Below, piece after piece: positions 42,886 through 62,870 of a stretch of 64,000 nt of DNA. The position numbers and the translations under genes were made by a program. The stretch comes from Acidimicrobiales bacterium (GTDB lineage Bacteria > Actinomycetota > Acidimicrobiia > Acidimicrobiales > Aldehydirespiratoraceae). The stretch spans positions 1,679 to 65,678 of the forward strand of contig JAQWLJ010000032.1 in the NCBI GenBank assembly GCA_029247365.1. The letters are read 5' to 3'. The notes beneath the pieces were generated by a model that was not told where the DNA came from, made no database searches, and saw nothing but the letters and a program-made list of their open reading frames with translations. Each line of letters starts with the position of its first letter. The stretch's first letter is position 1.

Positions 42886-43571
42886 ACTCCTTTCGCCTGC
42901 TCGGCTGCGATGTCGTCGACGTGGAAGGTGTACAGGTTTCGGTCCGAGCCGTAGCGGCGAAACTCGCCGGCCGATCCGCCGAGGCCGGCTGCATCGAGCA
43001 AGCCGTTGAGCACCTCGACGTGCTCTGGCCGCATCTCCTTCTCGACACAGTCAGCGCCGAGCGACGCGACACTGCCCCGCACGAAGATGCGGGTCTCGTA
43101 GAGCGAGTCACCGAGGTCGTGATCGGCATCGCCCAGCACCACCAGGTTGCCGGCCTGCCCCATGAAACCGCTCATGTGACCGACATTGCCTCCGACGACG
43201 ATGTCCACCCCTTTCATGGAGATCCCGCAGCGGGCCCCCGCGTTACCTTCGATGACGAGGAGGCCACCACAACCGGTCGCTCCCGCGGACATCGTGGCGT
43301 TGCCGGTGAGCCGCACTGTCCCCGACATGATGTTTTCCGCGAATCCGGTGCTGGCGTTGCCGCTGAGGCGAATCGTGCCCTTCTGGTGCATGCCGGCGCA
43401 GTAGTAGCCGACGGAACCGTGGATCTCGACGTCGATGTCTGCGTCGATCCCGGCGGCGACCGCATGGGCACCGCGTGGATTGTGCACTTCGTAGTGGGCG
43501 TCGCGAGGCCGGTGGAGTTCTGCGTTGAGCTCCCGCACGGTGCACTCCGCCAGGTCGAAGGTCGTGGTCAT
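42882..43571 (-). CDS. mgsB: N-methylglutamate synthase GXGXG subunit (GlxC/MgsB)
   Basis: GSVGYYCAGM, RCGISMKG, GHMSGFMGQAG, GDSLYE, SLGADC, YGSDRNLY. Confidence 0.9.
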   Translation of the reverse strand: MTTTFDLAECTVRELNAELHRPRDAHYEVHNPRGAHAVAAGIDADIDVEIHGSVGYYCAGMHQKGTIRLSGNASTGFAENIMSGTVRLTGNATMSAGATGCGGLLVIEGNAGARCGISMKGVDIVVGGNVGHMSGFMGQAGNLVVLGDADHDLGDSLYETRIFVRGSVASLGADCVEKEMRPEHVEVLNGLLDAAGLGGSAGEFRRYGSDRNLYTFHVDDIAAEQAKGV

Positions 43572-44467
43572 GACGCCAAGCTCCAGGTGTAGACGCGGGC
43601 TGGTTCGGGCTCAAAGATCTCGGCGTCGTCGACGCCGGGAAGGCGAGCGATGGCCCGATACTCCGACGACATCGCCACCCAGTCATCGGTTTCGGCAACG
43701 ACCGCCGGTTTGCAGGAGATCGGATCACGCAAGATCGCGAATCCGCTCTCGATGCCGATGGCGAAGGTGTAGAAGCCGTCGAGGTCGACCAAGGAACGCT
43801 CGAGCGCTTCGTCGAGTGTGTCGCCCTCGGCGAGCCGCCATGCGAGGAACCCGGCGGCGACCTCCGTGTCATTCTCGGTCTGGAACGACTCTCCGTGGCG
43901 GACGAGTCGTTCGCGAAGTTGGTTGTGGTTGGAGAGCGAACCATTGTGCACGAGGCAGGTGTCGGCGCCCGTAGCGAACGGGTGTGAGCCGTTGGTAGTG
44001 ATTGCGGACTCGGTCGCCATGCGGGTGTGGGCGATGGCATGAGTGCCCGTGCGCGCTGCAAGGTCGTAGCGCGTTGCGACGAGGTCGGGATCACCCACCG
44101 ACTTGTACAACTCGATCTGACGGCCGTAGCTCAACACGTCAAGCCCGCCACCATTGTCGATCAACCACTGGCGGGCGAGGCGGCCGTCGCCGGTGGTCTC
44201 GAAGACCGCGTGGTCGAGCACCGGTCGGGCTACGACTTCGGCATCGAGGTACGCGGCTAGGACGTCGGCCGTCTTGTTCCAGTCAGGCTGGTGCCCCTCG
44301 GCCAGCGCCGTGATTCGCGTGCGGCCCGGCGTTCCCTCGTCATAGACTGCGAAGCCGGCGCTATCGGGGCCGCGCTCGCGCATCTCGTGGAGCATGACCG
44401 CGGTCAGGCGACCGAGTTCATGGCGATGTCGATCGGTCTTCAGAAACAATCCAACGATCCCGCACAT
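43568..44467 (-). CDS. mgsA: N-methylglutamate synthase Ntn-amidotransferase subunit (GlxB/MgsA)
   Basis: MCGIVGLF (Cys1 nucleophile), RGPDSAG, HTRMATES, HNGSLSNH, ENDTEV, DLDGFYTF. Confidence 0.9.
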   Translation of the reverse strand: MCGIVGLFLKTDRHRHELGRLTAVMLHEMRERGPDSAGFAVYDEGTPGRTRITALAEGHQPDWNKTADVLAAYLDAEVVARPVLDHAVFETTGDGRLARQWLIDNGGGLDVLSYGRQIELYKSVGDPDLVATRYDLAARTGTHAIAHTRMATESAITTNGSHPFATGADTCLVHNGSLSNHNQLRERLVRHGESFQTENDTEVAAGFLAWRLAEGDTLDEALERSLVDLDGFYTFAIGIESGFAILRDPISCKPAVVAETDDWVAMSSEYRAIARLPGVDDAEIFEPEPARVYTWSLAS

Positions 44468-44505
44468 CTTGCACACTCCTCACGACCCCGTGCCAGCAGG
44501 GGCGC

Positions 44506-44552
44506 ACCCTAGTCCGACACTTTGACATTGGTGAAGTTCCTTCACCTAGGGT
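44506..44552. promoter_or_regulatory. Divergent mgsA/gmaS promoters sharing a palindromic operator
   Basis: + strand TTGACA (44522-27), N19, TAGGGT (44547-52). - strand TAGGGT at 44511-44506. Perfect GGTGAAG-TTC-CTTCACC at 44530-44546. Confidence 0.7.
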
Positions 44553-44606
44553 AGAGATGGTCTCGTCAGCTTCGGTGAGGGACACGAACGCAGGAGGGAA
44601 CTGTAC

Positions 44607-45968
44607 GTGGGGGACTACGAAGACATCAGGGCACGAATCGAGGCCGACGGCGTCGAGTACATCTATGCGATGTTCGTCGAGATGCACGGGAAGCCGTGCG
44701 CCAAACTCGTGCCAGTCGAGGCGCTCGATGACCTCATGAGCGACGGCGCCGGGTTCGCCGGGTTCGCGGCGGGCCCCATCGGCCAGGATCCGTCTCACCC
44801 CGACATCCTCGCTATCCCTGACCCGGCCTCGTACACGCAGTTCCCCTGGCAGCCCAATGTCGCAGCGATGCAGTGCGATCCCACCGTCGATGGAGCGCTG
44901 TGGCCCTACGCGCCGCGCGTCATCCTTCGGCAAGCGCTCGAGCGACTCGAGGCCGACCGCAACCTTGTGTTGAAGACCGGTGTCGAAGCCGAGTACTCAC
45001 TGGTCGTTCGAAATGAGGACGGGTCACTCGCAGTCGCCGACGAACGCGACGTTGACGCGCTCCCCTGCTACGACGCTCGGGCCCTTACCCGAATGCTGCC
45101 GCATCTCACCGAGGTCTCCAAGAACCTCAATGCCATGGGCTGGGGTAACTACGCCAACGATCACGAGGACGCCAACGGGCAGTTCGAGCAGAACTGGCGC
45201 TATGCCGACGCGCTCACCACCGCCGATCGCCTGATCGTATTCCGGCTCATGATTCACACGATGGCGCAGCGCGACGGTCGCTATGCGACCTTTATGCCAA
45301 AGCCGTTCACCGACAAGACCGGCAACGGCCTGCACGCGCACCTCAGCCTCTGGACGGCTGATACTGACGAACCGTTGTTTATCGGTGGCGACGACGACAG
45401 CAAAGGGCTTGGCCTCAGCGAGATGGCGTACCACTTTGCCGGCGGCCTCATCGACCACGCGCCAGGCCTGGCCGCAGTTGCGTGCCCGATCGTGAATTCG
45501 TACAAGCGCATGGGGGTAGGCGCGCCAACATCAGGCGCCACCTGGGCGCCGGCCTACGCAGCCTTCGGCGGCAACAACCGCACCCAGATGATCAGAGTTC
45601 CCGAAGCCGACCGCCTCGAGATCCGGGTAGGAGACGGGGCGGCTAATCCCTATCTCATGTTCGCAGCCATGCTGGCGTGTGGTCTTGACGGTGTCGACAA
45701 CGCCACCGACCCGGGTGAACCAAACACCGCCAATCTGTACACGCTTCCGGCCGACGAGGTCGCTCGGCGCGGGATTGTGGCGCTCCCGAGGACGCTGGTT
45801 CATGCAGCCGAAGCACTCGAGGCAAACGACGTTCTTGGCGCCGGCCTCGGCATGACGCCCGACGGGCCGTACCGCGACTACTTCGCGGAGGTGAAGCGGG
45901 ACGAGTTCTTCGCACACCATCACGAAGTCACCGCCGGCGAGGTCCAGCACTATCTCACGATGTTCTGA
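44607..45968 (+). CDS. gmaS: Gamma-glutamylmethylamide synthetase (GlnT-type glutamine synthetase homolog)
   Basis: AKLVP, GAGFAGFA, CYD, NDHEDANGQFEQN, FMPKPF, NSYKR, SGATWAP, GNNRTQMIR. Divergent from mgsABC. Confidence 0.85.
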   Translation: MGDYEDIRARIEADGVEYIYAMFVEMHGKPCAKLVPVEALDDLMSDGAGFAGFAAGPIGQDPSHPDILAIPDPASYTQFPWQPNVAAMQCDPTVDGALWPYAPRVILRQALERLEADRNLVLKTGVEAEYSLVVRNEDGSLAVADERDVDALPCYDARALTRMLPHLTEVSKNLNAMGWGNYANDHEDANGQFEQNWRYADALTTADRLIVFRLMIHTMAQRDGRYATFMPKPFTDKTGNGLHAHLSLWTADTDEPLFIGGDDDSKGLGLSEMAYHFAGGLIDHAPGLAAVACPIVNSYKRMGVGAPTSGATWAPAYAAFGGNNRTQMIRVPEADRLEIRVGDGAANPYLMFAAMLACGLDGVDNATDPGEPNTANLYTLPADEVARRGIVALPRTLVHAAEALEANDVLGAGLGMTPDGPYRDYFAEVKRDEFFAHHHEVTAGEVQHYLTMF

Positions 45969-45984
45969 GCCAGCAGCCCAAACC

Positions 45985-46593
45985 ATGACCGATGATGACA
46001 TCCCTTCGGCGCTCACTGGCGAGGACGTCTGTCGGATCGTCGGTCGGCGAGTCCGCGAGCGCCGCGCTGACCTCGGCCTGACCATGGAGCAGCTCGCCGA
46101 TGCGGCTGGCATATCGATTGGCATGCTGTCCAAGATCGAGAACGGACAGACCTCACCGAGCTTTTCGACGCTGACTGCGCTTGCCCACGCCGCCCACGTC
46201 CCATTCACCACATTCTTCCGTGGTCTCGACGAGGAACACGACGCCGTCCTCATTCGGCGGGGGCAGGGCCTTCGAATCGAGCACGAGGGTGGTGGCTCGG
46301 GGCGGACCTACGAGGATCTCGGCTCACTTCGCGGTCCACTTCGCGAGATCGAGCCGGTGTTGATCACCATCACGGAACCCGACGAGGTCTTCCCCCTCTT
46401 CCAGCACGCCGGTGTGGAGTTCCTTCACATCATCGAGGGCGTGATGGAGTACGGGTACGGCTCCAACCGCCACGTCTTGCACCCGGGTGACACCATCCAG
46501 TTTCGCGGCGATGTCGCCCACGGTCCGGTAGCACTCGTCGAGCTACCCATAAGGTTTCTTTCGCTGAAGGTTTACGCCCACCGCGAGACCTAA
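45985..46593 (+). CDS. XRE-family HTH regulator with C-terminal cupin
   Basis: LTMEQLADAAGISIGMLSKIENGQTSPS, FPLFQHAGVEF, HGP. Confidence 0.9.
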   Translation: MTDDDIPSALTGEDVCRIVGRRVRERRADLGLTMEQLADAAGISIGMLSKIENGQTSPSFSTLTALAHAAHVPFTTFFRGLDEEHDAVLIRRGQGLRIEHEGGGSGRTYEDLGSLRGPLREIEPVLITITEPDEVFPLFQHAGVEFLHIIEGVMEYGYGSNRHVLHPGDTIQFRGDVAHGPVALVELPIRFLSLKVYAHRET

Positions 46594-46611
46594 GCGGTCT
46601 CCGCTCGGCAC

Positions 46612-46964
46612 GTGAGTCTCGAGTGGGAACAGGTCACGGTCGACGCAGGCGACCCGGGAAGTCTCGGCACTGGCGGGCGAAAGCGCTCGGCTGGACGGTC
46701 GTCGACGAAGGTGCGGAGGTTGTTGAGATTCGACCAGCCCCCGACCGAACGCCGGGGATCCTCTTCCTGTTGAGCAACGACGTCAAGAAAGCCAAGAACC
46801 GACTGCATCTCGACTTCCGGCCCAACAACCAGACCGCCGAGGTCGACCGGCTTTTGGGCCTTGGGGCATCGAGGATCGACATTGATCAGGGCAGCGTTTC
46901 GTCGGTCGTGCTCGCCGATCTCGAAGGCAATGAGTTCTGCGTTTTGCGCGAGAGTTCCGACTAG
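46612..46964 (+). pseudogene. VOC/glyoxalase-like protein with a 1-nt frameshift near 46668
   Basis: GTG 46612 gives MSLEWEQVTVDAGDPGSLG. WRAKALGW...KNRLHLD...LADLEGNEFCVL continues in the -1 frame. Confidence 0.75.
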
Positions 46965-47026
46965 CAAGCGCACACAGCAGTGCGGCGCTGCGCCGTGAGT
47001 TCGACCCCCCACTATGGTCGCCGTCG

Positions 47027-48376
47027 ATGCCGTCCTCGAAGAACGTCGCAGTCATCGGCGCCGGGGCCGCAGGGTTGGTGACGGCTCGCCAGCTCAAACG
47101 GGTCGGCCTCTCCCCTGTCGTCTTCGAAGCCGAACCGGCACTCGGCGGAACCTGGACCTACACCGAAGACGTGGAGACCGACCCGCTCTCTGTTGCCCCC
47201 GATCGGGAGCGGATCCACACCTCGATGTACGCCAACCTCCACACCAACTTGCCGCGCGACCTGATGGCCTTCAGGGAATATCCTTTCGATGCTCGCGGTG
47301 GCGGGGAGGACTTCTGGCCTCGTTTTCCGGCCCACGCCCAGGTATTGACGTATCTGTCTCGCTACGCCGCCCACTTCGAGGTGAATGCCCACATCCGCTT
47401 TGACACGAAGGTGGAGTCGGTTCTCCCGCTCGGTGCCACCGGGGGGGGCGGAGCTGATAGCGAGGATCTCACAACGTGGCTGGTCCGCTCCAGCAACCCC
47501 GACACCGGTCCTCAGGAAGAACACTTCGACGCGATCGCTGTCTGCAACGGCCACTTCAGCGTTCCTAAGGTGCCGGACCTACCGGGAGCATCATCCTTTG
47601 GTGGTTTCGGGCTGCACAGTCACAACTATCGACGGCCGGAGGTGTTTGCCGAGAAAAAGGTCGTTCTTCTCGGCGGCCGGGCGTCGGGGGTCGATATTGC
47701 GATCGAAGTCGCCGAGCATGCGTCCGAGACCGTGATCTGCGCACGAGATGGCCGTACCGGCCAGTCGCTCCCCGGTTGCAGCGACATCCAGGTACGGCCT
47801 GCGATCGAGCGTTTCGACGGCGATGATGTCGTCTTGACCGATGGCGGCCGCATCGAGTCCGTCGACGTGCTTGTGTACTGCACGGGGTACCAGTACGCCC
47901 TGCCGTTCTTGGCGAACTCCAGCAGCGTCAAGGTCGACGAGGGCTGGATTCACCCGCTGTACCTCGATCTGTTTTCCTCGGTGACGCCGTCGCTCGGGTT
48001 CATTGGGCTTGGCAACATGATCATCCCGTTTCCCCAATACGAACTGCAGGCTATGGCGTTTGCCGCGGTCGTTGGCGGGACAGTTTCGCTGCCAAGTCGA
48101 GCGGAACGCGAACGCGCAACCCAGGAACACGAGGCCGTCTTACGGGGCGACAGTGTCCCGGAGCGACATTTTTTGACCCAGGGCGACGAGCAATTCGCCT
48201 ATAACGACCTGCTCGCCGATCATCTTGGAATCGAACGGATCTCGCCGAACTTTGAGGCGATATATCACGCTGTCCAGCGGGCAAGGATGCGGGACCTGAA
48301 GCGCTACCGCCTCGAACCACTGCCCTGGCTCGACCCCGAGTACGGGCGCCGCGGTCACGCTGCGCCCCCCGTTTAA
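47027..48376 (+). CDS. Flavin-containing monooxygenase (class B FMO)
   Basis: VIGAGAAG, GGTW, SMYANLHTNLPR, CNGHFSVP, FMO fingerprint FGGFGLHSHNY, GGRASGVD, YCTGY. Confidence 0.9.
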   Translation: MPSSKNVAVIGAGAAGLVTARQLKRVGLSPVVFEAEPALGGTWTYTEDVETDPLSVAPDRERIHTSMYANLHTNLPRDLMAFREYPFDARGGGEDFWPRFPAHAQVLTYLSRYAAHFEVNAHIRFDTKVESVLPLGATGGGGADSEDLTTWLVRSSNPDTGPQEEHFDAIAVCNGHFSVPKVPDLPGASSFGGFGLHSHNYRRPEVFAEKKVVLLGGRASGVDIAIEVAEHASETVICARDGRTGQSLPGCSDIQVRPAIERFDGDDVVLTDGGRIESVDVLVYCTGYQYALPFLANSSSVKVDEGWIHPLYLDLFSSVTPSLGFIGLGNMIIPFPQYELQAMAFAAVVGGTVSLPSRAERERATQEHEAVLRGDSVPERHFLTQGDEQFAYNDLLADHLGIERISPNFEAIYHAVQRARMRDLKRYRLEPLPWLDPEYGRRGHAAPPV

Positions 48377-49977
48377 CTCGGCTCGCTCGCCAACCACCGC
48401 ACAGTGGCGTTGTAGGCCATGTCGTGCCCGGACTGGAAGTAGACGAGCAGGACGGAGTCTGACTCTTGCGCGTACACCGGTGCAGGGTCATCGGGACCGA
48501 AGAAGGTCTTGACACGGCTCCAATCCTGAAGGTCACCCGCGACCACCCCGTTGCCGAAGAGGGCAACCTGTCCGGAATTGAGACGGTCCGCTGGATCGGC
48601 GAGTGAGTTGAACACGTCGGCGGCACTGCTCGTGAGCACGAATGGGTCGTTGATGCCTTGTGCAACGAAGACAGGGACCTCGTGCTCCCGTGCTGTATCG
48701 AGATAGGTGATCGGGCTGCGCTTCAGGCACTCGGCCTGGGCCGGCCCCGGGATTGTCGGGTTGCCTCCGCACGCCGTTGAGATGTGCCTTGTATAGGGGC
48801 GGCCGAACCGGGCCGAGAGCTGGTAGAACTCGATGAGGTCGTGGGTCGGCCCCCACGCCGAGACAGCGGTGACCTTCTCGGGGTGTCGTCCGGCAAGGAG
48901 AAGCGCCATCATCCCGCCACCGGAGTAGCCGACGGCATACACGCGATCGGCATCGACGCCAGCCTGTGCAACCGCGAAGTCGATCGCATCAGCAGCATCT
49001 TGGACAGCCAAATCGGACCCGACTGCGTCTGGGCTGTTGTTTCGGCCGCGGAATTCGGGTGCAATCACCGCCCAGCCGTTCTCCTGGGCCCACATCGCGT
49101 AGGGGATTCCGGCGTGCTGGGTGTAGTCGGCGCTCCACGAATGCAGGATCACGAGAACCGGTTGCTCGTGATCGTCAGTCGGGGGAAGCCAGAAAGCAGG
49201 CTGGTCAGTGCCATCTGCCGTCGACGGGATACGAATATCCTGAATGCCCGGAACTGACGACCTCCAACGGCTGGAGCCGGTGGCAACGAAGTCGCTGAAA
49301 TCCCGGATCGTGCGGAACCCGACGATCGAGTTGAACGTCTCGCATCCGGACGAATCGGGGTCGACGACGACCGCTGGTAGGCGCTTGTACCTGTGGAGGA
49401 ACGCAGCGACTTGACCCCGGGTAACGAAAGCGTCGGGTTCGAACGTCGTTTCCGAGGTCCCGAACGTGATGCGCTGCTCCAGCATCCATCCGATGGCGGT
49501 GACCTGCCAAGGCGTCACCACATCAGTGAACTGGTCCGGGGCCGGTGCGCCAGGGGTTCCTTCCAGACGGTGAAGGAATACTGCGAACTCGCCTCTCGTG
49601 AGGTCGTCATCGGGCGAGTAGGTGGTCGGGGTCGTACCGAACGTGATGCCATTGTTGAACATCCACGCCACTGCTTCCTGCTGCCAGTCGGACACGACAT
49701 CGACAAATCCATGGGTATCGCTAGGGGGAGGAGAGCCCTCCATGCGCCACAGGAACGCAGCCACCTGCCCGCGAGTGACAGGATCAGCCGGGCTGAAACA
49801 CTTCGGCGATGTTCCCATTGTGATCTCACTGTCGACCATCCATTGAACGGCCTCGGTGTAGTACCTCCCTGACGCGACATCGCCAAAGCCCGCCACGCCC
49901 GCCACCGGGGCTACCGACGTCATGCTGGTCGTCATTATCGCTAAACCAAGTGCGACAGCCAGCGTTCGACGCGTCAT
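48373..49977 (-). CDS. Secreted SLH-domain protein with C-terminal S9-like alpha/beta hydrolase
   Basis: Signal peptide, three SLH repeats (FSP...TRGQVAAFL), LHSWS, GYSGGG nucleophile, GHD. Confidence 0.85.
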   Translation of the reverse strand: MTRRTLAVALGLAIMTTSMTSVAPVAGVAGFGDVASGRYYTEAVQWMVDSEITMGTSPKCFSPADPVTRGQVAAFLWRMEGSPPPSDTHGFVDVVSDWQQEAVAWMFNNGITFGTTPTTYSPDDDLTRGEFAVFLHRLEGTPGAPAPDQFTDVVTPWQVTAIGWMLEQRITFGTSETTFEPDAFVTRGQVAAFLHRYKRLPAVVVDPDSSGCETFNSIVGFRTIRDFSDFVATGSSRWRSSVPGIQDIRIPSTADGTDQPAFWLPPTDDHEQPVLVILHSWSADYTQHAGIPYAMWAQENGWAVIAPEFRGRNNSPDAVGSDLAVQDAADAIDFAVAQAGVDADRVYAVGYSGGGMMALLLAGRHPEKVTAVSAWGPTHDLIEFYQLSARFGRPYTRHISTACGGNPTIPGPAQAECLKRSPITYLDTAREHEVPVFVAQGINDPFVLTSSAADVFNSLADPADRLNSGQVALFGNGVVAGDLQDWSRVKTFFGPDDPAPVYAQESDSVLLVYFQSGHDMAYNATVRWLASEPS

Positions 49978-53545: not shown

Positions 53546-54607
53546 TCAACGAAGCGCAGCCAGCCGGTCGTGAGGTATCGCGTGCACCACCCGGCCCTGA
53601 TGCCCGGTCATCGTCTCGGCTGCACAGAGCGCATTCCAGATCGACTCCTCAACCGCTTCTGCGGCGGCGTTGAACAAGGGTGTCATCGCGCCCGCCGGCA
53701 GGGTGGATACCGACGTCGGTTTCGTTGCGTGCAGCGGCACGCGGTTCCCAGTCGAGAACGCGAGAAAGATGTCGCCGCTCCCGTTGCCTCCGGTGCCGCC
53801 CACCCGAGCGAGCCCGACGGTTGCCCGACGAGCCAGTCGCTTGCATTGATCGGCCAGCAGCGGGGCATCGGTGGCGATGACGACGATAATCGAGCCCGCA
53901 TCGGCAACGCTCGGGTCAGTCGGGAGGGGGGTGACCGCGGCGTCGATCAGACGTCCAACGGGCCGACCGTCGAGACGGAGCAGTTCTCGCGACCCGTAGT
54001 TCGCCTGAACGAGCACACCCACTGTGTAGGTGTCTGACTCCAATTCGACCCGCCGAGACGAGGTCCCAATACCACCCTTGAACTGATGACAGACCATGCC
54101 GGTTCCGCTCCCGACGTTGCCCTCTTGCACGACACCACCAGGGCAGGTGTCTGCGTCAACCAACGCGGCGCGGACATCGGCCGCGGTCAGGGAGAACGCG
54201 TCGATGTCGTTCAGGAAACCGTCGTAGGTCTCGGCCACAACGGGCAGACACCACGAGGCGTCGGGGTCTCGCTCGACTTCAGCTGCGACCAGTTCATCGC
54301 GCACCAGGCCAACCTGATGCGTGTTGGTTAACCCGATCGGACCGCTGAGCAGCCCTGACTCCTCGAGCCAGTGCGCGCCGGTCATCTCACCATTGCCGTT
54401 GAACGAGAAGTAGCCCCCGAAACAGAGATCGGACCGCTCCCCGACCGGGCGGGTGTTGACGACGGTCACACCAGTTCGAACAGCGGTCGGCTTGTCATCG
54501 AGAACCGTCTGATGCCCAACGCAAATACCGGCGACGTCCGTGATTGCGTTGTGACTCCCTGTCGGACTACTGCCGATCACGAAGCCGAGGTCTCGGAGAC
54601 GCACCAT
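53546..54607 (-). CDS. DmpA / peptidase family S58 (P1) aminopeptidase
   Basis: NAITDVAG, RTGVT, NGNGEMTG, PVVAETYD, FKGGIGTSSR, autoprocessing site GSIIVVIATDAP, GSGDIF. Confidence 0.92.
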   Translation of the reverse strand: MVRLRDLGFVIGSSPTGSHNAITDVAGICVGHQTVLDDKPTAVRTGVTVVNTRPVGERSDLCFGGYFSFNGNGEMTGAHWLEESGLLSGPIGLTNTHQVGLVRDELVAAEVERDPDASWCLPVVAETYDGFLNDIDAFSLTAADVRAALVDADTCPGGVVQEGNVGSGTGMVCHQFKGGIGTSSRRVELESDTYTVGVLVQANYGSRELLRLDGRPVGRLIDAAVTPLPTDPSVADAGSIIVVIATDAPLLADQCKRLARRATVGLARVGGTGGNGSGDIFLAFSTGNRVPLHATKPTSVSTLPAGAMTPLFNAAAEAVEESIWNALCAAETMTGHQGRVVHAIPHDRLAALR

Positions 54608-54791
54608 CACCTGACACTAGGCGGTGCAGAGCCTCGCCCAGCACGCCGCACTCCCCGATTCCGGTTCGTTTGGTGGCGCAGGCCCAACCTCGAGGCGCGC
54701 GCCGGTTGTATCCAGCAACCGACTGATTTCGACCGTGCGAAGTGGTCGCTGAACGTCATCTGGTCGTCGGGCGGGCCGGTAGCGTCGACCA

Positions 54792-55706
54792 ATGGCCCCT
54801 TTGCCCGAGACGCCTATCTGGCAGCGAGACAGCTCGCATGCTCAGGTGCTCGATTACCACCTGAGCATGCTGCTCGACACCAAACGGCTCGACGCTTTCC
54901 GACAGGCGATCGACACAACGGTGTCACCGGGTGATGTGGTGGTTGATGTCGGTTGCGGCACCGGGATCCTCTCGTTCATGGCATGCGAGGCTGGTGCCCG
55001 ACGGGTGTATGCCATCGAGGGCGCCCCGATCCTGGAGGTCGCCCGGGAGCTTGCGACAGCGAACGGTTTCGCAGACCGCGTTGAGTTCATCGAGGGCTGG
55101 TCGAGCGATGTTGACCTTCCGGAACCGGCGGACGTGCTGATCACCGAGACGATCGGAAGTGCCGGGCTCGACGAGGGCATCGTGGCCTGGGCCGCCGACG
55201 CCCGGACCCGCCTCCTGAAGCCAACGGCAACGATCGTCCCTTCGCGGCTCAGGCTCTGGGTGTGTGGCGCACAGATGGCGGAGGACCACAGCCTCATCAC
55301 CGACTGGTTCGAAACCGGACTCCCGTATGACCTGAGCGCTGCTCACCGCCGCGCCGCTCACAGTCTCTGGTTTACCCATCTCTCGCCAAATCACCTTCTG
55401 GGACAGCCGGAGTTGGCGGTCGACGTTGACCTCGCAACCAGTGCGAGTCGAGCGATGATGGCGTCAGGCACAATGCGGGTCGAGCACGAAGGCACACTGC
55501 ATGGACTTGCCTGCTGGTTCGATTGCCTCCTCGCCCCCGGCGTCACCGTCGACAACGTGCCGGCAGATGCGCAGTCGAGTTGGGGCCACGGCTTCATGCC
55601 GCTTGAGGAGCCGCGGTCCGTGCGTCAGGGCGAGGCGCTGACCTGGTCGTTGTCGGTCTCGGCCGACGGGCATCACTGGACCTGGGATGTCGGTGTGCTC
55701 GGCTAA
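54792..55706 (+). CDS. Protein-arginine-methyltransferase (PRMT)-like SAM-dependent methyltransferase
   Basis: YHLSMLLD..R, VVDVGCGTGILS, VYAIE, double-E loop ITETIGSAGLDEG, LKP...IVP, HGLACWFD, SSW at the THW-loop position. Confidence 0.75.
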   Translation: MAPLPETPIWQRDSSHAQVLDYHLSMLLDTKRLDAFRQAIDTTVSPGDVVVDVGCGTGILSFMACEAGARRVYAIEGAPILEVARELATANGFADRVEFIEGWSSDVDLPEPADVLITETIGSAGLDEGIVAWAADARTRLLKPTATIVPSRLRLWVCGAQMAEDHSLITDWFETGLPYDLSAAHRRAAHSLWFTHLSPNHLLGQPELAVDVDLATSASRAMMASGTMRVEHEGTLHGLACWFDCLLAPGVTVDNVPADAQSSWGHGFMPLEEPRSVRQGEALTWSLSVSADGHHWTWDVGVLG

Positions 55707-55727: not shown

Positions 55728-57410
55728 TCAGACGAGCGGATTGAATCGGGCCTCGATGTCAGCAGCCCCACCGGCAAGGCCTGCGGGGCTGCCATCGGCC
55801 CGCCAGCACGCGGCACCCGTCATGAGGCCGGTATCGAGGTCGACCTGCACTCCGTTCATACCCCCGGCGACGTTTGGCACCATCGTGATGTCATGACCAA
55901 GTGCGGCGAGCGAGCCGCGAAGCAACGGCGCAAAACCGGCCTCGAGTTCAACCGTCTGGCCCTGGGTCCAAAGCCGGGGGGCCTCGACGGCCTCCTGCAG
56001 CGACATGCCGTGATCGATCACGTTGAGCAATGCCTGAAAGACCGCAGGAAAAATGCGCACCCCACCCGGAGTTCCGAGGCCAAGCCACGGACGGCCGTCA
56101 CAACGCACGATCACGGGTGCTGTGCTGCTGACAACGCGCTTGTGCGGTGCCACCGAATTGGGGTGACCAGGGTGCGGGTCGAACATCGCCTGGGTGTTGT
56201 TGAGCAGGAGTCCAGTGCCCGGCACCATCACCTTCGACCCGAACAGCTCGTTGATGGTCTGGGTCATCGACACAATATTGCCGTCGGCGTCAGCGGTTGT
56301 GAGGTGCGTTGTGTGCGCGGATCCCGCGTCGAGTGCGCCGGCCTGGGCCGTCGAAGCTCGCTGCGGATCGATGTCGACGCGTCGGTTGACGGCATATTCC
56401 TTCGAGGTCATCCAGTCGAGCGGGATGTCAACTGTCGACGGATCGCCAAGGTAGGCGAACCGATCCGCAAACGCGATCTTGAGCACCTCGACGAGGAGGT
56501 GGCTCGTCTCAACGGTGCCGAAACCCATGTTCTTGATGTCGTAGCCCTCGAGAATGTTCAGCATCTCGATGATCAGGGTGATGCCGCTGTTCCCCGGCGG
56601 TGGACCGGTGATCTCGTACCCTCGATAGGTGCCTCGCACCGGGTCGGTGTTGCGGGTGCGGTAGGCCAACAGGTCATCCATAGTGATAAGCCCGCCATTG
56701 GCCGCCATATCGTCGACGATCGCTCGGCCGAGCTCACCGCCATACACCGCACCGGACCGCTCGGTTGCGATCAGTTCGAGTGAGGCGGCGGCGTCGGACT
56801 GGACGATCAGATCACCGGGCTGGACGGTGTGCCCGCCTGGTTGAAAGATCGCCGCTGTCGCGTCGAAGCGGGCGATGTCGTCGGCGTTGTCTGCGGCGAG
56901 ACGGCTCAGGTATTCGCTGCACTGGAAGCCAGACCTCGCATGGCGAATCGACGGCGACAGAATCGCTTCCCACGAGAGGCGGCCGAAGCGCTCGTGGACC
57001 TCGTCCCACGCCTTGAGGTTGCCGGGGACGCCGACGGCGAGGTGGCCAACCTGGTTGGCCCGACCCTCGGTCAGGAGATAGTCCGGCCACTCGTCGGAGA
57101 TGGGCCAGTACATCTCGGGTGTCGCCGCGCTCGGTGCCAGCGTGTAGTTGTCGACGCAGTTCGACGTGCCGTCGGCCATGGCGATGTTGATATAGCCGCC
57201 GCCGAGCGGTCCGACCATCATCGGCTCGACAACGCTCAGCGCGAAGATCGCGGCGATGGCGGCGTCGATCGCGTTTCCCCCCATCGCTAGCATCTCGAGC
57301 CCTGCCGCGGAACCGAGCGGGTGGTTGGCCGAGACCATGCCCTGCGACCCTGTCGCAGGCTGCTTGGAGGTTTGGAAGGTCGTTCCGGCTCGGGTTCGCC
57401 AATCGCTCAT
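55728..57410 (-). CDS. ggt: Gamma-glutamyltransferase (no signal peptide)
   Basis: GGNAIDAA, VGVPG, AFADR, nucleophile HTTH, TQTIN..FGS, LLNN, GTPGG. Confidence 0.92.
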   Translation of the reverse strand: MSDWRTRAGTTFQTSKQPATGSQGMVSANHPLGSAAGLEMLAMGGNAIDAAIAAIFALSVVEPMMVGPLGGGYINIAMADGTSNCVDNYTLAPSAATPEMYWPISDEWPDYLLTEGRANQVGHLAVGVPGNLKAWDEVHERFGRLSWEAILSPSIRHARSGFQCSEYLSRLAADNADDIARFDATAAIFQPGGHTVQPGDLIVQSDAAASLELIATERSGAVYGGELGRAIVDDMAANGGLITMDDLLAYRTRNTDPVRGTYRGYEITGPPPGNSGITLIIEMLNILEGYDIKNMGFGTVETSHLLVEVLKIAFADRFAYLGDPSTVDIPLDWMTSKEYAVNRRVDIDPQRASTAQAGALDAGSAHTTHLTTADADGNIVSMTQTINELFGSKVMVPGTGLLLNNTQAMFDPHPGHPNSVAPHKRVVSSTAPVIVRCDGRPWLGLGTPGGVRIFPAVFQALLNVIDHGMSLQEAVEAPRLWTQGQTVELEAGFAPLLRGSLAALGHDITMVPNVAGGMNGVQVDLDTGLMTGAACWRADGSPAGLAGGAADIEARFNPLV

Positions 57411-57453
57411 CGCCCGACGTTAGCGAGGTACGTCTCGGCGCAAGTCAGAGTCC

Positions 57454-58551
57454 TCAGTTCGAGCAGTCGTCGAGTGCCTGATCGAAGCGGCGGAGACCCT
57501 CCGCAATATTGAACGGTTCTCCCCCGAACCCCAGTCGGAAGAAGCGGTTGTCGACGCCGAAATACTTTCCTGGGATCGTCATCGTGCCGTACTGCTCGAT
57601 CAATCGCTCGTAGAGCGCATCGGGGTCGTGAACTTGGTCGGCGAGACGGCCCAGGCCCACCACACCGGCGGTTGGCGCTACCCAATCGACCAAGTCCTGT
57701 CCATCGATCCACTCGGCCATGATTGCCTTGTTCGCCGTGACCCGGTCCTTGGCTGCCGAGAGGTACCGGTGCTTGTCACTCAACACGTGGAGCGCAATGC
57801 GTTCGCCGAGCGCAGTGTTCGTGATCGTGACGTACTCACGAACACACAGGACTCTTTCGATCAGTGAACGATTCTGAGTCGCCATCCAGCCGATGCGAAT
57901 GCCGGGCAACCCGTAGCACTTCGACATCGTGGACAAACTGACTGCACTCGGCGACAACGACGCAGCCGGCGGCAAGGCCGCCTCGAAGCCCATCTCGCGG
58001 TAGGTCTCATCCGAGAGCAGCACAATTCCCCTCTGTTCGCACAGCTCGACGATCTTGCGAAGGGTGTCCTCTGAGATCGTTGATCCGGTCGGGTTGTGCG
58101 GGTGGGTGATGCACAGCAGCCGAGTGTCGTCGGTCAGACTTGCAGCCAACCGCTCGACGTCTGGCACGAAACCTTCGTCATAGTCGAGGGGAAAGCGAAC
58201 CACCTCGCACCCAATGGTCTCGGGGATCTCGTACAACGACGGATAGTTCGGGTGTTCCACGACGATGCGGTCATTGGGTTCGAGAAGGCCGTTGTACAGA
58301 CCGAAAATGGCTTCGCTACCCCCGTTGGTCACGATCACGTCCTCGGCGGTTAGGCCTGGGTAGTCGGCCGCGATCACCTCCCGAAGCTCGGGACTGCCGG
58401 CGTGGTGCCCGTAGCGAAGAGCGACGTCATCCAGCGACACCGCAAGGTCGTTGAGGTGAGAGAACTGCACCGCGCTTTCGCAAAGTTCAATCTCTCGAAC
58501 GAACTGGTGCCGGTCGAACCAATCTTCGAGCTCCATACGAACGAATGTCAT
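57454..58551 (-). CDS. PLP-dependent aminotransferase class I/II-fold enzyme
   Basis: VTNGGSEA, PHNPTG, SDETY, PLP lysine STMSKCYGLPGIRIGW, FRLGFG. Confidence 0.88.
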   Translation of the reverse strand: MTFVRMELEDWFDRHQFVREIELCESAVQFSHLNDLAVSLDDVALRYGHHAGSPELREVIAADYPGLTAEDVIVTNGGSEAIFGLYNGLLEPNDRIVVEHPNYPSLYEIPETIGCEVVRFPLDYDEGFVPDVERLAASLTDDTRLLCITHPHNPTGSTISEDTLRKIVELCEQRGIVLLSDETYREMGFEAALPPAASLSPSAVSLSTMSKCYGLPGIRIGWMATQNRSLIERVLCVREYVTITNTALGERIALHVLSDKHRYLSAAKDRVTANKAIMAEWIDGQDLVDWVAPTAGVVGLGRLADQVHDPDALYERLIEQYGTMTIPGKYFGVDNRFFRLGFGGEPFNIAEGLRRFDQALDDCSN

Positions 58552-58568
58552 GTTCAGACTCCTGGCCG

Positions 58569-59669
58569 CTAGGCCTTTGCGATGGTCAAGTAAACGTGGA
58601 CGTAGTCCATGGCGTGACCCTCTGGGGCTTCGCGGACCATGGCTTCGTAGGTGCCGTAGAAGGCATCGATGATCCGGTCGCGTTCGGCGTCTGACCGGTT
58701 AGGGCTGAGACCGTTGCGGAACGTTGCTGCACTCCACGACCGCAGCGTCGGCACGTAGTCGGCCGCGAACCGGGCTGCGTCACCATGGGCCTGGAAGTCT
58801 GCGGCGTACGGGCACGGCACGACTCGGGTCTCACAGTGTTCGACGCTCAGCCCGGCCTTCCGTACCTCGCTGCTGGCGTCGTCGAGCGGAGCACGGAACT
58901 CGTCGACCGTCTTGTAGTACTGCGGCAGTGTCATCTCTTCGTACTCAGCTTCGGTGACAGTGCCATCGGCGACGAATCCTCGCCAGGTTTCGTTGAAGGT
59001 GTCGAACATGTTCACACCGCCGGTGTTGCCGAGGTAGCGACCTTCCTCGTCGACTCCGAAGTTCACCATCACGAGACGCCCGCCTGCCGCCAGCTCTCTC
59101 GCACGGCAGAGCAGGATCGCTTCCCAGTCCTGCGCCGCCTGCGCCTGGAACGCGACCAAGCTCTCGCCGCTTGCGCCAACCGCTTGGACGTGGTCGGGGA
59201 TGTCACAGGGCTTACGAGATAACCAGTGCATCGCGGTGGCGGAGAACCCGAGATCGAGCGCGCCGTTCGGAAGGATTGGCTCGTAGAACGAGGTTGCCGA
59301 TGCCAAGACCTGGACGTTGTCGAAGCGGTCGAGGTAGCTCGACTGGCCGGTGAGGCCATGCACCATTTGGAAGATCGCGTTGTAGTCGTTCCGAGGCTGG
59401 TCGGTGTAGACGATCTGCACGTCACGTTGGGGGAAACGGACACGGATCGCAGCGATCGCGTCGCCGATCATGCCGAGCGACGTTCCTCCATCGGCCGTCC
59501 CCATGTCGGAGAACGTGAAGGCGCTGCCCGCCCGGTCAGGAATCTGTTCGATCGCGTCGCGCACGAGTGGCCACGCACCATCGATGACATGTTTCGCGCC
59601 GAGCGTCGCCAACGAATAGGCCCCACCCCTCGTCATTGCCACATGTGTCTTGTCGTCTGATGACATCAC
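58569..59669 (-). CDS. SABATH-type (Methyltransf_7) SAM-dependent methyltransferase
   Basis: MTRGGAYS, DMGTADGGTS, YTDQPRNDYNAIF, SFYEPILP, FSATAMHWLS, QAAQDW..IL..RARELAAGG. Confidence 0.85.
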   Translation of the reverse strand: MMSSDDKTHVAMTRGGAYSLATLGAKHVIDGAWPLVRDAIEQIPDRAGSAFTFSDMGTADGGTSLGMIGDAIAAIRVRFPQRDVQIVYTDQPRNDYNAIFQMVHGLTGQSSYLDRFDNVQVLASATSFYEPILPNGALDLGFSATAMHWLSRKPCDIPDHVQAVGASGESLVAFQAQAAQDWEAILLCRARELAAGGRLVMVNFGVDEEGRYLGNTGGVNMFDTFNETWRGFVADGTVTEAEYEEMTLPQYYKTVDEFRAPLDDASSEVRKAGLSVEHCETRVVPCPYAADFQAHGDAARFAADYVPTLRSWSAATFRNGLSPNRSDAERDRIIDAFYGTYEAMVREAPEGHAMDYVHVYLTIAKA

Positions 59670-59675
59670 TCGCTC

Positions 59676-60641
59676 CTATGTGGGTTCAGAGATGTTGGCG
59701 ATCGGAAAGATACGGCGCCAAGCCTTGAGTTGGTACAACTCGCAGCTATCGGCATTGGGATCATCCACTGCGCCGTTCAGTATTGGTTTGATTGGAGCGT
59801 CCGGCCGGGCGTAGGAAAACAGCGGAATCGAGTAGCGGTCGGTTCCTGATCGGTTGATCACGCGGTGTGGAGTCGAGGAGAACTCTCCGTTGCTCCAGAT
59901 CTGCATCATGTTGCCTAGGTTGACGACGTACGTACCAGGTATTGGCGGTGCCTCGACCCATTCGCCACTCTTGCTCTCGATCTCCAGCCCGCCGTTCTCG
60001 TCTTGCCACAGAATGGTGAAGGAGCCCTCGTCGGAGTGGGGCACGACCCCAATATCGCTCACCGCAGTCGGATTGTCTTGAGGCGGGTAGTGATTGACCT
60101 TGAGCAGCTGAGTCACCGGATTGAGCAGGTTGGGGAGAAAGTCCGCTTCTTGGCCGAGCGCAAGCGAGAAGGCACGCGCCAATACATCGGCCAAGACATT
60201 GGCCGCTTCGTGGTATGCCTCCATGGCGTTTCGCAACGCCTCGCCGTTCTCGGGCCAGACGTTGGGGCCATCAAGTCTGTTCTGGGGGTTGAGCGGGCGA
60301 TCGGGACCCATCCAATACCCCTCTTGATTGCTCTGAGCAGCGTTGTCTTCGCCTTCGTACGAGCGGTAGCGCAATGGCAGGTAGCCTCGCATCCGTTCGT
60401 CCACCTGAACGGCCTTCTTCTCGTCCATCGGGCGGGCAAAGAACTCACGAGAGGCCGCAAGCACGTTGTCGATCAAGCCTCGGTCGACGCCGTGGTTTTT
60501 GATGTACAAGAAGCCGACATCGCGGCAAGCGGCGCGAAGGGCATCGATCGTTGCCGGATCAGCGTTGCCTGTTGCGAGCTCGCAGAGGTCAATTACCGGT
60601 ATCTCGGTGAAGTCGAGTCGGCGTGAGAGTGGAATGGCCAC
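59676..60641 (-). CDS. Isopenicillin N synthase-like Fe(II)/2-oxoglutarate dioxygenase
   Basis: IPVIDL, ACRDVGFLYIKNHGV, HSD, GGLEI, VVNLG, STPHRV, RYS. Confidence 0.9.
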   Translation of the reverse strand: MAIPLSRRLDFTEIPVIDLCELATGNADPATIDALRAACRDVGFLYIKNHGVDRGLIDNVLAASREFFARPMDEKKAVQVDERMRGYLPLRYRSYEGEDNAAQSNQEGYWMGPDRPLNPQNRLDGPNVWPENGEALRNAMEAYHEAANVLADVLARAFSLALGQEADFLPNLLNPVTQLLKVNHYPPQDNPTAVSDIGVVPHSDEGSFTILWQDENGGLEIESKSGEWVEAPPIPGTYVVNLGNMMQIWSNGEFSSTPHRVINRSGTDRYSIPLFSYARPDAPIKPILNGAVDDPNADSCELYQLKAWRRIFPIANISEPT

Positions 60642-60673
60642 GGCCGTTTCCTCCTCGTGGGTTTCTGTTCGTT

Positions 60674-61657
60674 TCAGGTGCGGTCTGCAGAGCGCTGGCG
60701 TTCGCGCATCGCTGCGTGAGCTTCCGGTGTGCCGTCGTGATAGGTGCCGAGCAGCTGGTCGATGGGCGTGAGTGTGTTGCCGTAGTTACAGTCGAAGTAC
60801 CGGTGATGCAGTTGGTGGAAGTAGTCGCCTGACAGAAACGACGGGCGCCTCCGCTCGACATCACCGAGCCACACGCGTTCGAATCCGGCGTGGGTGAGGG
60901 CGGGCGACAGCAGGTTCAAGAACAGCAGAGTAAGAACCAGGACCGGATGGCCGGGAACGAACCACAGCAGCATCGGCGAGCTCATGTACACGACGTGCTC
61001 GAGCGGGTGCATCGAGATCCCCGACCAGGGACCAGGGTTTGAGTTGCGGTGATGCACCGCGTGGGCCCAGTCGTAGAGCTTGCCGACATGAAGAAGCCGA
61101 TGCGTCAGAGAGAAATGGAGGTTCCCCCAGAGGAACACGATCGCCGTGAGGACGATCAGGTACAACCAGTTCCCGGCGAAGTCGTGGTAGGGGCTGTGGC
61201 CGTTGGCGAACATCCACCAGCCAACCGCCTCGAACGCTGTCGACATCGTGACGCCGCTCACGAACGTCCACATCACGTTGTCCCACAGCTGGTTGCTGAA
61301 CGTGAATCGCGCGCTCTCTCCCGGCCACCGCTCATTGAACTTGGTGACGAGCCCCTGCCCGCGACGGCAATACAGCCACCAATGCAGACCCCCAGCCAAG
61401 ATCGTGATGAGGGCGGCATTGCGCAGCCAGATGAAGGCGACCCAACCTGGCTCAAAGCTCTCCATTGATGACAGTTCAGGGGTTGCGTATCTCCAGCACA
61501 ACCACGCCGCCCCGAGCCACGTCGCACCGCCGGGCCAGAACTGCTTCCACCCAAAGAACCACAGCACGCCCAACGGCTGGGGCGGCCAGACGAAGATCGG
61601 GGCGGCGGGAATCGGTACAGCCGGTTCCCACTGCTGCGACTGTTTGGTTGATTCCAC
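60674..61657 (-). CDS. Sterol desaturase / fatty acid hydroxylase superfamily membrane diiron enzyme
   Basis: His boxes HFSLTHRLLH, HAVHH, HAG, FHQLHHRYFDCNYG. Probable start GTG 61657. Confidence 0.88.
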   Translation of the reverse strand: MESTKQSQQWEPAVPIPAAPIFVWPPQPLGVLWFFGWKQFWPGGATWLGAAWLCWRYATPELSSMESFEPGWVAFIWLRNAALITILAGGLHWWLYCRRGQGLVTKFNERWPGESARFTFSNQLWDNVMWTFVSGVTMSTAFEAVGWWMFANGHSPYHDFAGNWLYLIVLTAIVFLWGNLHFSLTHRLLHVGKLYDWAHAVHHRNSNPGPWSGISMHPLEHVVYMSSPMLLWFVPGHPVLVLTLLFLNLLSPALTHAGFERVWLGDVERRRPSFLSGDYFHQLHHRYFDCNYGNTLTPIDQLLGTYHDGTPEAHAAMRERQRSADRT

Positions 61658-61787
61658 GGTTTCGGACGGTCTCTCCGTTTGTCGGTAGCCGCATCCTGCG
61701 GTCCACCCCAAGTTCGGTCAAGTGACAAACGTCGGGTCCGCTTGCTAAGTTTTGTCACCTATCGATGGCGGTGAAGCGGAGAGCACC

Positions 61788-62654
61788 TTGAAGTTCGACA
61801 TCGATTCCCTCCGGACCCTTCAAACCGTCGTCGACACCGGCAGCGTGCAGTCCGCCGCCGACCAACTCTGCATTTCTCGATCAGCGGTCTCGTGGAAACT
61901 GAAACGGCTACAAGAACGAACCGGCTGCAAGCTCCTTGAAAAGGAGGGCCGCCGACTCTGCCTTACCGACGACGGCGAAGAGCTCCTCACCTACGGTCGC
62001 CAGATCATCGATATTCATGATGCAGCCGTCCAACGGTTTCGGCCCGTCGGCTCGTCCGAGGTTGTGCGGATCGGAGCCACTGAAGGAGCCGGGTCTGTTG
62101 CCATCCTCGACACGGTCGCACCCTGGTTCCGCCTAGAGCAGCCTGAGGTTGAGCTAACGATCAGAGTCGAACAGCCCGCCACCGTCGACGAGTGGCTCGC
62201 CGATGGACACATCGATTTGGCGGTGACTCTCGCACTGGATGAAGACGTGTCACCTGACGACGTCGTTCTCTTCAGCGAAGGCCTTGTCTGGGCCCACAGC
62301 CACGCACTCGACATCGCGGCGCTGACGTCGATACCGCTCATCACGTGGGGCTCCCGTTCGTTCTCTGCTCGAGTTGCGGGTCGAGAACTCACTGCAAACG
62401 GAATCGAACATCATGTGGGCTACGAACTTCCGTCGAGTAGTTCGGTGTGGTCTGCGATTGCGAACGGGGCAGGCGTGACCGTGGCAGACAAAGCGGAAAT
62501 CGCCCACCTCGATATCGCCACAACCGGGCCGCCGTTGCTGCCCGATCTGCCACATATCAACTACGTGCTTCGCAAGAATCCCGCAACTGCCGACGATCGT
62601 CCGGTGCGTCTTGCCGCCGACCAGATCAAGGCCTCGTTCGGGGCTGCCGCGTAG
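61788..62654 (+). CDS. LysR-family transcriptional regulator
   Basis: FDIDSLRTL..VVDTGS...AADQL..SRSAVS..LKRL HTH, LTDDGEEL. GGAGAG SD before TTG 61788. Confidence 0.92.
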   Translation: MKFDIDSLRTLQTVVDTGSVQSAADQLCISRSAVSWKLKRLQERTGCKLLEKEGRRLCLTDDGEELLTYGRQIIDIHDAAVQRFRPVGSSEVVRIGATEGAGSVAILDTVAPWFRLEQPEVELTIRVEQPATVDEWLADGHIDLAVTLALDEDVSPDDVVLFSEGLVWAHSHALDIAALTSIPLITWGSRSFSARVAGRELTANGIEHHVGYELPSSSSVWSAIANGAGVTVADKAEIAHLDIATTGPPLLPDLPHINYVLRKNPATADDRPVRLAADQIKASFGAAA

Positions 62655-62870
62655 AGGCACCAGGCAGCAAATGGAGGTTCACAACAGATGTCGCTGGGGG
62701 CGGGCTCACTGCGCTCGCAAAGTCAAGGCCGAGGCCTAGGCCTAGGTTCGCTTAATCAGGCAGACGGGTCAAAGGCGCACTTCACCAGCCATTTGCGCGT
62801 CCCCAACGCGCGGCTCGTTGAAATCTGTCACTGTGGAGATGAACATCCGCGCAAACCCAAAAGGAAAATC

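Follow-up and report, generated by a model that had tools for sequence, protein, structure and literature searches.

In the GntC preprint, a transmembrane hydroxylase, GntB, feeds a pyridoxal phosphate (PLP)-dependent cyclase, GntC, and section 9 names a conserved N-terminal glutamate, a Ser-Ser pair, and the PLP lysine as common to GntC, VioD, and OrfR. For plant carboxyl methyltransferases, a paper devoted to a non-SABATH family (PMC10193983) describes a carboxylate clamp formed by Gln25 and by the tryptophan of a '..MWLS' motif, printed as residue 115. Here, we compare these systems with a run of genes found in a stretch of 64,000 nucleotides from an Acidimicrobiales bacterium (GenBank assembly GCA_029247365.1, contig JAQWLJ010000032.1, positions 1,679 to 65,678), hereafter referred to as the window. 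The genes, designated FAH, DOX, SAB, PLP, and GGT, are divergent from a LysR-family regulator gene. Our reading, to which we assign a probability of about 0.45, is that they form a genuine five-gene operon (FAH-DOX-SAB-PLP-GGT), linked to LysR and belonging to a single marine bacterial population. This operon would be inducible and built as a mosaic, and would oxidize and then methylate or deaminate a small polar nitrogen compound.

Results

The regulator gene, the region between the divergent genes, and the five genes of the operon were located as follows.

61752-62654, + strand: LysR-family regulator gene (Pfam HTH_1, 59.8 bits, and LysR_substrate, 56.5 bits)
61722-61758, no strand: candidate operator, inverted repeat GTGACAAA-N21-TTTGTCAC (letters read directly)
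60674-61711, - strand: FAH, FA_hydroxylase-family ('sterol desaturase') membrane di-iron oxygenase, 345 residues, first gene of the operon (PF04116)
59676-60641, - strand: DOX, Fe(II)/2-oxoglutarate (2OG) oxygenase of the IPNS/DOXC type, 321 residues (DIOX_N and 2OG-FeII_Oxy)
58569-59669, - strand: SAB, bacterial SABATH-family methyltransferase dependent on S-adenosylmethionine (SAM), 366 residues (PF03492, Methyltransf_7)
57454-58551, - strand: PLP, fold-type I PLP enzyme of the GntC/VioD/PRK07324 neighbourhood, 365 residues (PF00155, Aminotran_1_2)
55728-57410, - strand: GGT, Ntn hydrolase of the GGT family, fifth co-oriented gene (PF01019 and TIGR00066)

The original prediction described four co-oriented genes divergent from a LysR gene, with AGGAG-type ribosome-binding sites on the three internal genes, and this arrangement was confirmed from the sequence. 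The gaps are 32 bp (FAH/DOX), 6 bp (DOX/SAB), and 17 bp (SAB/PLP), and the sites read GAGGAGG upstream from DOX, TAGGAGCGA upstream from SAB, and CCAGGAG upstream from PLP. That two of the gaps are as short as 6 and 17 bp and carry ribosome-binding sites points to selection on co-expression. GGT follows PLP after 43 bp and is part of the same gene run. All proteins of the operon and LysR exceeded the Pfam gathering scores, and the earlier family assignments hold. The statement that no scaffold synthase is present also stood, since no nonribosomal peptide synthetase (NRPS), polyketide synthase, or terpene-cyclase domain was found in the open reading frames scanned, from 41.5 kb to the end of the contig. 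Terminator-like sites were not found within any gap of the operon, and their count (10 versus 6.8 ± 2.7) was not above chance. The search for sigma-70-like promoter sites returned none, versus 2.0 expected from shuffles. The called start codons of FAH and LysR are separated by 40 bp. The intergenic region harbors the perfect 8-bp inverted repeat listed above, a candidate LysR operator, which overlaps the called LysR start. The true start codon of LysR may therefore be located further downstream.

The arrangement was recovered independently of the assembly. Logan contigs from three DNA studies, approximately 98% identical to the window, span the LysR/FAH, FAH/DOX, DOX/SAB, SAB/PLP, and PLP/GGT junctions (57144-58874 for X1 record 4, 57587-60032 for X7 record 27, and 59124-62700 for X4 record 24), indicating that it is not an assembly artefact. 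Contigs of the RNA-seq metatranscriptome X18 span GGT/PLP (57161-57838), SAB/DOX (59286-59771), and DOX/FAH (60468-60770), and cover parts of LysR. Three of the four operon junctions are thus bridged in the RNA library; the contig at PLP/SAB, which has just 20 letters on one side, was not scored as bridging. These contigs are a weak sign of transcription across the junctions. The PLP protein belongs to a 90% identity cluster of 29 members, spread over many contigs, indicating that the population has been met repeatedly in public data. Together, these results indicate that the locus exists as assembled and is probably expressed; its enzymes look functional.

To assess conservation of the gene set, a scan anchored on SAB was performed with one genome per species, and neighbourhoods were extracted for the best 80 loci of at least 535 genomes. 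Flanks of 3 kb or more on both sides are available for 49 of these 80 loci. A second scan anchored on FAH covered 66 metagenome loci, three of them close relatives. Contigs encoding the closest relatives of SAB (77-86% identical) and PLP (64-82% identical) are excluded from the counts of four-gene loci. The four genes were found together in none of the 80 SAB-anchored and none of the 66 FAH-anchored loci outside the window's own population. The original prediction had proposed a coherent four-enzyme pathway; this was not upheld by the co-occurrence check, as the full set was found nowhere else we looked and only pairs recur, with differing third genes.

The linkages that recur elsewhere are DOX-SAB and SAB-GGT. 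Among the best 80 SAB loci, DOX adjoins SAB in two (L001 and L004), a FAH relative (42% identical) is convergent in one (L003), and a GGT gene (29% identical) is located directly 3' of SAB in four alphaproteobacterial loci with the order SDR-SAB-GGT. Neither PLP nor LysR was detected near SAB in any of the 80. The operon of L001 and L004 comprises DOX (72-73%), SAB (82% and 71%), and a gene for a HalD-like protein, which has the HxD triad and thus looks like a hydroxylase. In these genomes, the closest relative of PLP is just 32% identical and the FAH paralogs only 39-43%. One genome with the DOX-SAB-HalD-like operon (G672) also carries three tandem FAH-family paralogs (contig C6, 305210-308381). 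A bacterial SABATH gene directly downstream from lpxB, the gene for lipid-A disaccharide synthase, was found in 25 of the 80 loci (including L007 and L008), mostly in gammaproteobacterial metagenome-assembled genomes (MAGs) and symbionts.

The FAH-anchored loci show what follows LysR, FAH, and DOX in relatives. In L099, LysR (82%) is divergent from FAH (85%) and the contig stops there. In L158, FAH (94%) and DOX (95%) are followed by a Creatinase_N/Peptidase_M24 gene, then by an unknown gene and a subtilase gene. In L157, FAH (94%) and DOX (79%) are followed by a class I methyltransferase gene. The presence of a methyltransferase of a different fold in the slot held by SAB in the window suggests that methylation after two oxidations is functional. 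No SAB- or PLP-like neighbour was detected in the 66 FAH-family metagenome loci.

Among the genomes sampled, relatives of FAH (E ≤ 1e-40) were found in 7 of 301 genomes of the class, including the window's own, the best being 47-48% identical, and relatives of PLP (E ≤ 1e-60) in 7 of 401 genomes of the phylum, including the window's own, at 34-39% identity. No DOX relative (E ≤ 1e-70) was present in the 400 other sampled genomes of the phylum, the sole match being in the window's own genome. Nine relatives of PLP (34-45% identical; three from Chloroflexota and six from the window's phylum) were devoid of FAH, DOX, SAB, and GGT genes nearby, within up to approximately 10 kb on each side as contigs permitted. 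As far as we could look, the genes do not represent a conserved pathway; they form a mosaic of bacterial modules that is specific to one population. The picture is that of a conserved core, LysR-FAH-DOX, followed by an exchangeable tail consisting here of SAB, PLP, and GGT.

FAH matched PF04116 with 79.6 bits, for a gathering score of 31, and contains the histidine boxes H199-x4-H204, H217-x2-HH, H235-x3-H, and H299-x2-HH, with hydrophobic peaks at approximately residues 91-109, 178-203, and 247-275. Its start codon is uncertain (TTG as called). The protein had no match in NCBIfam (E ≤ 0.01) or in the PDB, and the Atlas label of its clusters is 'sterol desaturase family'. Relatives displaying 35-47% identity fall in three recurrent operon types of marine bacteria (metagenome loci L129-L140, L105-L108, and L109-L128). 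One type comprises an OpuAC-type binding protein, an ABC ATPase, a permease, FAH, and an arginase-family ureohydrolase, sometimes with a DegT-type aminotransferase in between, and has MttB, LysR, and a DAO/FAO_M/GCV_T dehydrogenase nearby. The second comprises the TRAP transporter DctPQM, FAH, a DMFA2_C protein, and a GMC oxidoreductase. In the third, FMO, GMC, an MR/MLE enzyme, GMC, LacI, and a PanB-like protein precede FAH. What these contexts uniformly suggest is imported nitrogen compounds that are soluble in water, and not lipids. A literature search returned no description of sterol-desaturase/FA-hydroxylase enzymes in betaine, guanidino, or MttB contexts.

We also considered whether FAH is a homolog of GntB, for which NCBIfam provides the model NF041365 (guanitoxin arginine gamma-hydroxylase; NF041363 is the model for GntD). 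This proposal was rejected, since NF041365 matches an FA_desaturase (PF00487) protein on contig C64 (93 bits) and also has a match on contig C23, but does not match FAH on contig C45. Two further FAH paralogs, 40-41% identical, are encoded by contig C15 of the same genome (19665-20597 and 34236-39660; loci L089 and L090). One adjoins genes for an MFS transporter and a class II aldolase. The other is located 3.3 kb from a PLP paralog (32-35%), and the interval encodes an acyl-CoA dehydrogenase, a metallo-beta-lactamase-fold protein, and an ectoine-synthase-like/glyoxalase fusion. The match to one of these FAH paralogs contains a TGA codon.

DOX matched DIOX_N (97.1 bits) and 2OG-FeII_Oxy (92.7 bits), and had no match in NCBIfam. 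The iron triad (H202-x-D204 and H259) and the 2OG site (R269-x-S271) are all present. The best PDB match was 9ovh (E = 3e-53), named an ethylene/succinate-forming enzyme, and many plant and fungal DOXC enzymes were also matched. Since the natural Pseudomonas ethylene-forming enzyme (EFE) entries match DOX only at E of approximately 4e-10, we rejected the match to 9ovh as a sign that DOX uses arginine. The 9ovh protein may be a reconstructed ancestor.

SAB matched PF03492 with 112.8 bits (versus 29.8) over profile positions 14-333 of 335, and no NCBIfam model. The original prediction described the tailoring chemistry of the operon as plant-like. This label does not fit SAB, as at least 535 species-level bacterial genomes encode the family, mostly in unrelated contexts, and the best solved relative of SAB is the fatty-acid O-methyltransferase (FAMT) of Mycobacterium marinum (5f2k, E = 3.4e-31), followed by plant SABATH enzymes. 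In an alignment with SAMT (1m6e), in which we take the clamp tryptophan to be residue 151, this residue is kept in SAB (H148-W149), and W149 is invariant in 20 of 20 aligned relatives. Gln25 is replaced by Ala25, next to an invariant Lys26. The methyl acceptor of SAB may plausibly be a carboxylate.

The PLP protein matched PF00155 with 167.8 bits and possesses the expected catalytic residues, including S210-K211 (K211 being the PLP lysine), N153-PTG, and D181 (the D of DETY). Its PDB matches were 3op7 (1.5e-50), GntC (8fft, 7e-43), and OrfR (4m2j, 6e-39), with aspartate aminotransferases ranking behind. The original prediction had drawn an analogy with VioC/VioD. It was retained in part: the three best NCBIfam models are GntC (257.4 bits), VioD (249.8 bits), and PRK07324 (249 bits, also below its curated cut-off), the next family scoring 151 bits, but PLP stays below the cut-offs for GntC and VioD, and three further aminotransferases of the genome obtain higher GntC scores. 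This model, NF041364, returned 220-307 bits for eight ordinary-looking aminotransferase genes of the window's genome (G000) and had matches, below its cut-off, in 14 of 14 control genomes. The model being unspecific, a sub-threshold top match to 'GntC' should not be read as cyclase function, and a GntC-specific reading of PLP is weakened. In an alignment with OrfR (residues 8-355), Glu9 is kept; the alignment with GntC begins at residue 37 and thus does not cover the N-terminal Glu and Ser positions.

GGT matched PF01019 with 462 bits and TIGR00066 with 435.3 bits, for a cut-off of 357.85, and inspection by eye revealed no obvious signal peptide. Two genes lie beyond it.

54792-55706, + strand: PRMT-like methyltransferase (Pfam matches to PrmA, PRMT_C, and PRMT5_C), convergent on GGT
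53546-54610, - strand: peptidase S58 of the DmpA type, just beyond the PRMT-like gene (Pfam)

Both genes are outside the operon and could belong to the same metabolism. At 10-16 kb from the GGT end of the operon, positions 41551-48376 harbor a cluster typical of methylated-amine catabolism, comprising Glu_synthase-like, GXGXG, and GATase genes (an NMG-synthase-like trio on the - strand) and genes for a glutamine-synthetase-like protein, an HTH-cupin regulator, and an FMO-like monooxygenase. The adjoining gene (48373-49977, - strand) encodes three SLH repeats fused to an S9/alpha-beta hydrolase domain; SLH repeats are unexpected in such a genome.

Discussion

In the mechanism that we propose for the five-gene operon, LysR would be activated by an effector, probably the substrate. 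At the membrane, FAH would hydroxylate a small, polar, nitrogen-containing substrate, for which an amino-acid-type solute (perhaps a basic or guanidino one) is the most likely candidate, and DOX would carry out a second oxidation (hydroxylation, desaturation, or oxidative demethylation). PLP would act on the alpha-amino centre of the oxidized amino acid, by transamination or by elimination/cyclization as in VioD, OrfR, and GntC, and SAB would methylate a carboxylate or, less likely, a heteroatom. Cleavage of an amide or a gamma-glutamyl bond would fall to the GGT-type hydrolase. Our leading guess for the substrate, and a weak one, is a basic or guanidino amino acid; the pointers to the substrate class are the operon contexts of the FAH relatives and of the genome's own FAH paralogs, the nearest named families of PLP, which are arginine-derived cyclases, and the nearby PRMT-like gene and methylated-amine cluster.

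The original prediction was of a pathway that makes or remodels a small methylated metabolite. A clearly biosynthetic role is not supported, since relatives of FAH sit in transporter and catabolic operons, which makes catabolism or remodelling at least as likely as synthesis. We give even odds to the use of an imported solute for catabolism or remodelling, and consider the synthesis of a modified, methylated amino acid to be a tenable but lesser prospect.

Several observations weigh against the reading of the five genes as one operon with a common substrate. The absence of a four-gene locus outside the window's population means that the genes may not form one pathway. Two genomes of the same family, G167 and G271, yielded neither a SAB match at 1e-10 nor a PLP relative at 1e-30, and no neighbour of the PLP relatives (34-45%) is common across genera. 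The operon has no transporter gene, and a SAM-dependent methyltransferase is unusual in a catabolic route. The scores of PLP are under the cut-offs for both GntC (NF041364, 257.4 versus 415 bits) and VioD (TIGR03947, 249.8 versus 390.9 bits), and three other aminotransferases of the genome outscore it on NF041364 (269-307 bits). The 'SSS' of OrfR aligns with C24-E25-S26 of PLP, so that one of the two conserved serines is kept. The contexts of FAH rest on approximately four lineages at 90% identity, which are few independent cases, and involve proteins only 35-47% identical to the window's FAH. Finally, RNA libraries can contain DNA, and the contigs bridging the junctions do not prove a single transcript.

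Three alternatives have to be weighed. In the first, the operon would make a cyclic or hydroxylated guanidino amino acid by a non-homologous analogue of the GntB and GntC steps: FAH would hydroxylate free arginine or a relative, PLP would cyclodehydrate the product to an enduracididine- or capreomycidine-like ring, DOX would hydroxylate it, and SAB would make a methyl ester. GntB, as a transmembrane hydroxylase feeding a PLP cyclase, provides a precedent, but NF041365 misses FAH and matches an FA_desaturase-family protein elsewhere in the genome. GntC and VioD are the best NCBIfam families of PLP, GntC 8fft and OrfR 4m2j precede aspartate aminotransferases in the PDB, and the cyclase Glu9 is kept; however, the scores are 257 versus 415 (GntC) and 250 versus 391 (VioD), three aminotransferases of the genome rank higher on GntC, and the position of the first conserved serine is occupied by a glutamate. 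A HalD-like free-amino-acid hydroxylase gene is found beside DOX-SAB in L001 and L004, and FAH and PLP paralogs are 3.3 kb apart on C15 of the same genome, whereas a PLP-like neighbour is found in none of the 66 FAH-family loci and the closest FAH-DOX relatives have no PLP gene. In addition, the open reading frames scanned encode no peptide synthetase, ligase, or exporter for the product. We consider this alternative improbable.

The second alternative is that LysR-FAH-DOX is one unit and that SAB, PLP, and GGT are unrelated arrivals in a variable spot behind DOX that merely share a transcript. The stretch behind DOX does vary, with a creatinase-like gene in L158, a class I methyltransferase gene in L157, and SAB-PLP-GGT here, but the methyltransferase of L157 has another fold and holds the same position as SAB. 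Similarly, the SAB family is mostly found in unrelated contexts (25 of the best 80 loci have it immediately 3' of lpxB), and the PLP family has no conserved neighbours, but DOX and SAB are again adjacent in L001 and L004 (71-82% identity), as are SAB and GGT in four distant loci. Gaps of 6 and 17 bp with ribosome-binding sites also argue against a chance juxtaposition, which has in our judgement a small probability.

The third alternative, a lipid-modifying system in which FAH would hydroxylate a membrane lipid or head group and SAB would methyl-esterify fatty acids as does the mycobacterial FAMT, is very improbable: FAH is an integral-membrane protein of the FA_hydroxylase family, for which the ornithine-lipid hydroxylase OlsE and sterol/sphingolipid hydroxylases are lipid-acting precedents, and among solved structures SAB comes closest to a fatty-acid O-methyltransferase. 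That similarity, however, is local only (E 3e-31, residues 43-335). The genes flanking the FAH relatives encode transporters and enzymes that handle water-soluble compounds, rather than lipid functions. Nor is a lipid role obvious for a cytosolic 2OG oxygenase, an amino-acid-type PLP enzyme, or a GGT hydrolase.

Beyond this operon, the FAH clade may comprise non-lipid membrane di-iron oxygenases that hydroxylate or demethylate water-soluble nitrogen compounds (betaines, guanidino compounds, or free basic amino acids) and represent a second, independent invention of the arginine chemistry of the desaturase-type GntB. Here, together with a 2OG oxygenase, a GntC/VioD-like PLP enzyme, and a bacterial SABATH enzyme, FAH would make or convert a hydroxylated, possibly cyclized, methylated amino acid. 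We hold this proposal to be less likely than not.

The enzyme families encoded by the operon are all known, and these particular clades carry no assigned substrate. The widespread bacterial SABATH clade (at least 535 genomes at the species level, including many MAGs of marine or symbiotic bacteria) contradicts the notion that SABATH proteins are essentially plant enzymes and constitutes a large pool of small-molecule methyltransferases to explore. The FA_hydroxylase-family clade is repeatedly tied to betaine-type ABC/TRAP importers, ureohydrolases, MttB, and GMC oxidoreductases, contexts that hint at an unrecognized oxidative step in the turnover of marine dissolved organic nitrogen. The operon of the window offers a compact test bed, since it brings both clades together with a regulator that could reveal the substrate.

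Comparison with known systems

The M. marinum FAMT (5f2k) has in common with SAB the SAM-binding core and the tryptophan of the '..WLS' motif. The similarity is local, however, with residues 43-335 aligned, and SAB falls into a distinct and very widespread clade that comprises environmental Proteobacteria and others.

The operons for marine osmolyte and methylated-amine catabolism resemble the locus in that distant relatives of FAH are embedded in them; a LysR gene is present here, and the window contains FMO-like, glutamine-synthetase-like, and NMG-synthase-like genes. In contrast, the window's operon lacks transporter, ureohydrolase, MttB, and GMC genes, and includes a gene for a SAM methyltransferase, an enzyme normally absent from such routes.

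DOX shares with EFE and IPNS-family oxygenases the DIOX_N and 2OG-FeII_Oxy domains and the HxD...H and RxS motifs, although the natural Pseudomonas EFE is a distant match (E of approximately 4e-10). The VioC/VioD and OrfP/OrfR pairs, each made up of a 2OG arginine hydroxylase and a PLP cyclase (for capreomycidine or streptolidine), are similar in combining a 2OG oxygenase with a VioD/OrfR-like PLP enzyme in one operon. VioC and OrfP are clavaminate-synthase/TauD-type oxygenases, whereas DOX is of the IPNS/DOXC type (DIOX_N), and the NRPS context is absent here, with a VioD score for PLP of 250 bits versus a cut-off of 391.

GntB and GntC of guanitoxin biosynthesis, a transmembrane arginine hydroxylase and a PLP cyclodehydratase whose product is L-enduracididine, provide the comparison in which a membrane histidine-box iron oxygenase is encoded together with a PLP enzyme, the best NCBIfam match of PLP being GntC. 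The logic may also be the same, in that a free amino acid is hydroxylated and PLP chemistry then uses the hydroxyl. The two systems differ in that FAH is an FA_hydroxylase (PF04116) whereas the match to the GntB model in the genome is an FA_desaturase (PF00487) protein, in that other gnt-like genes are absent, and in the GntC score of PLP (257 versus 415 bits). By analogy, the operon may work like GntB/GntC while not being a member of those families.

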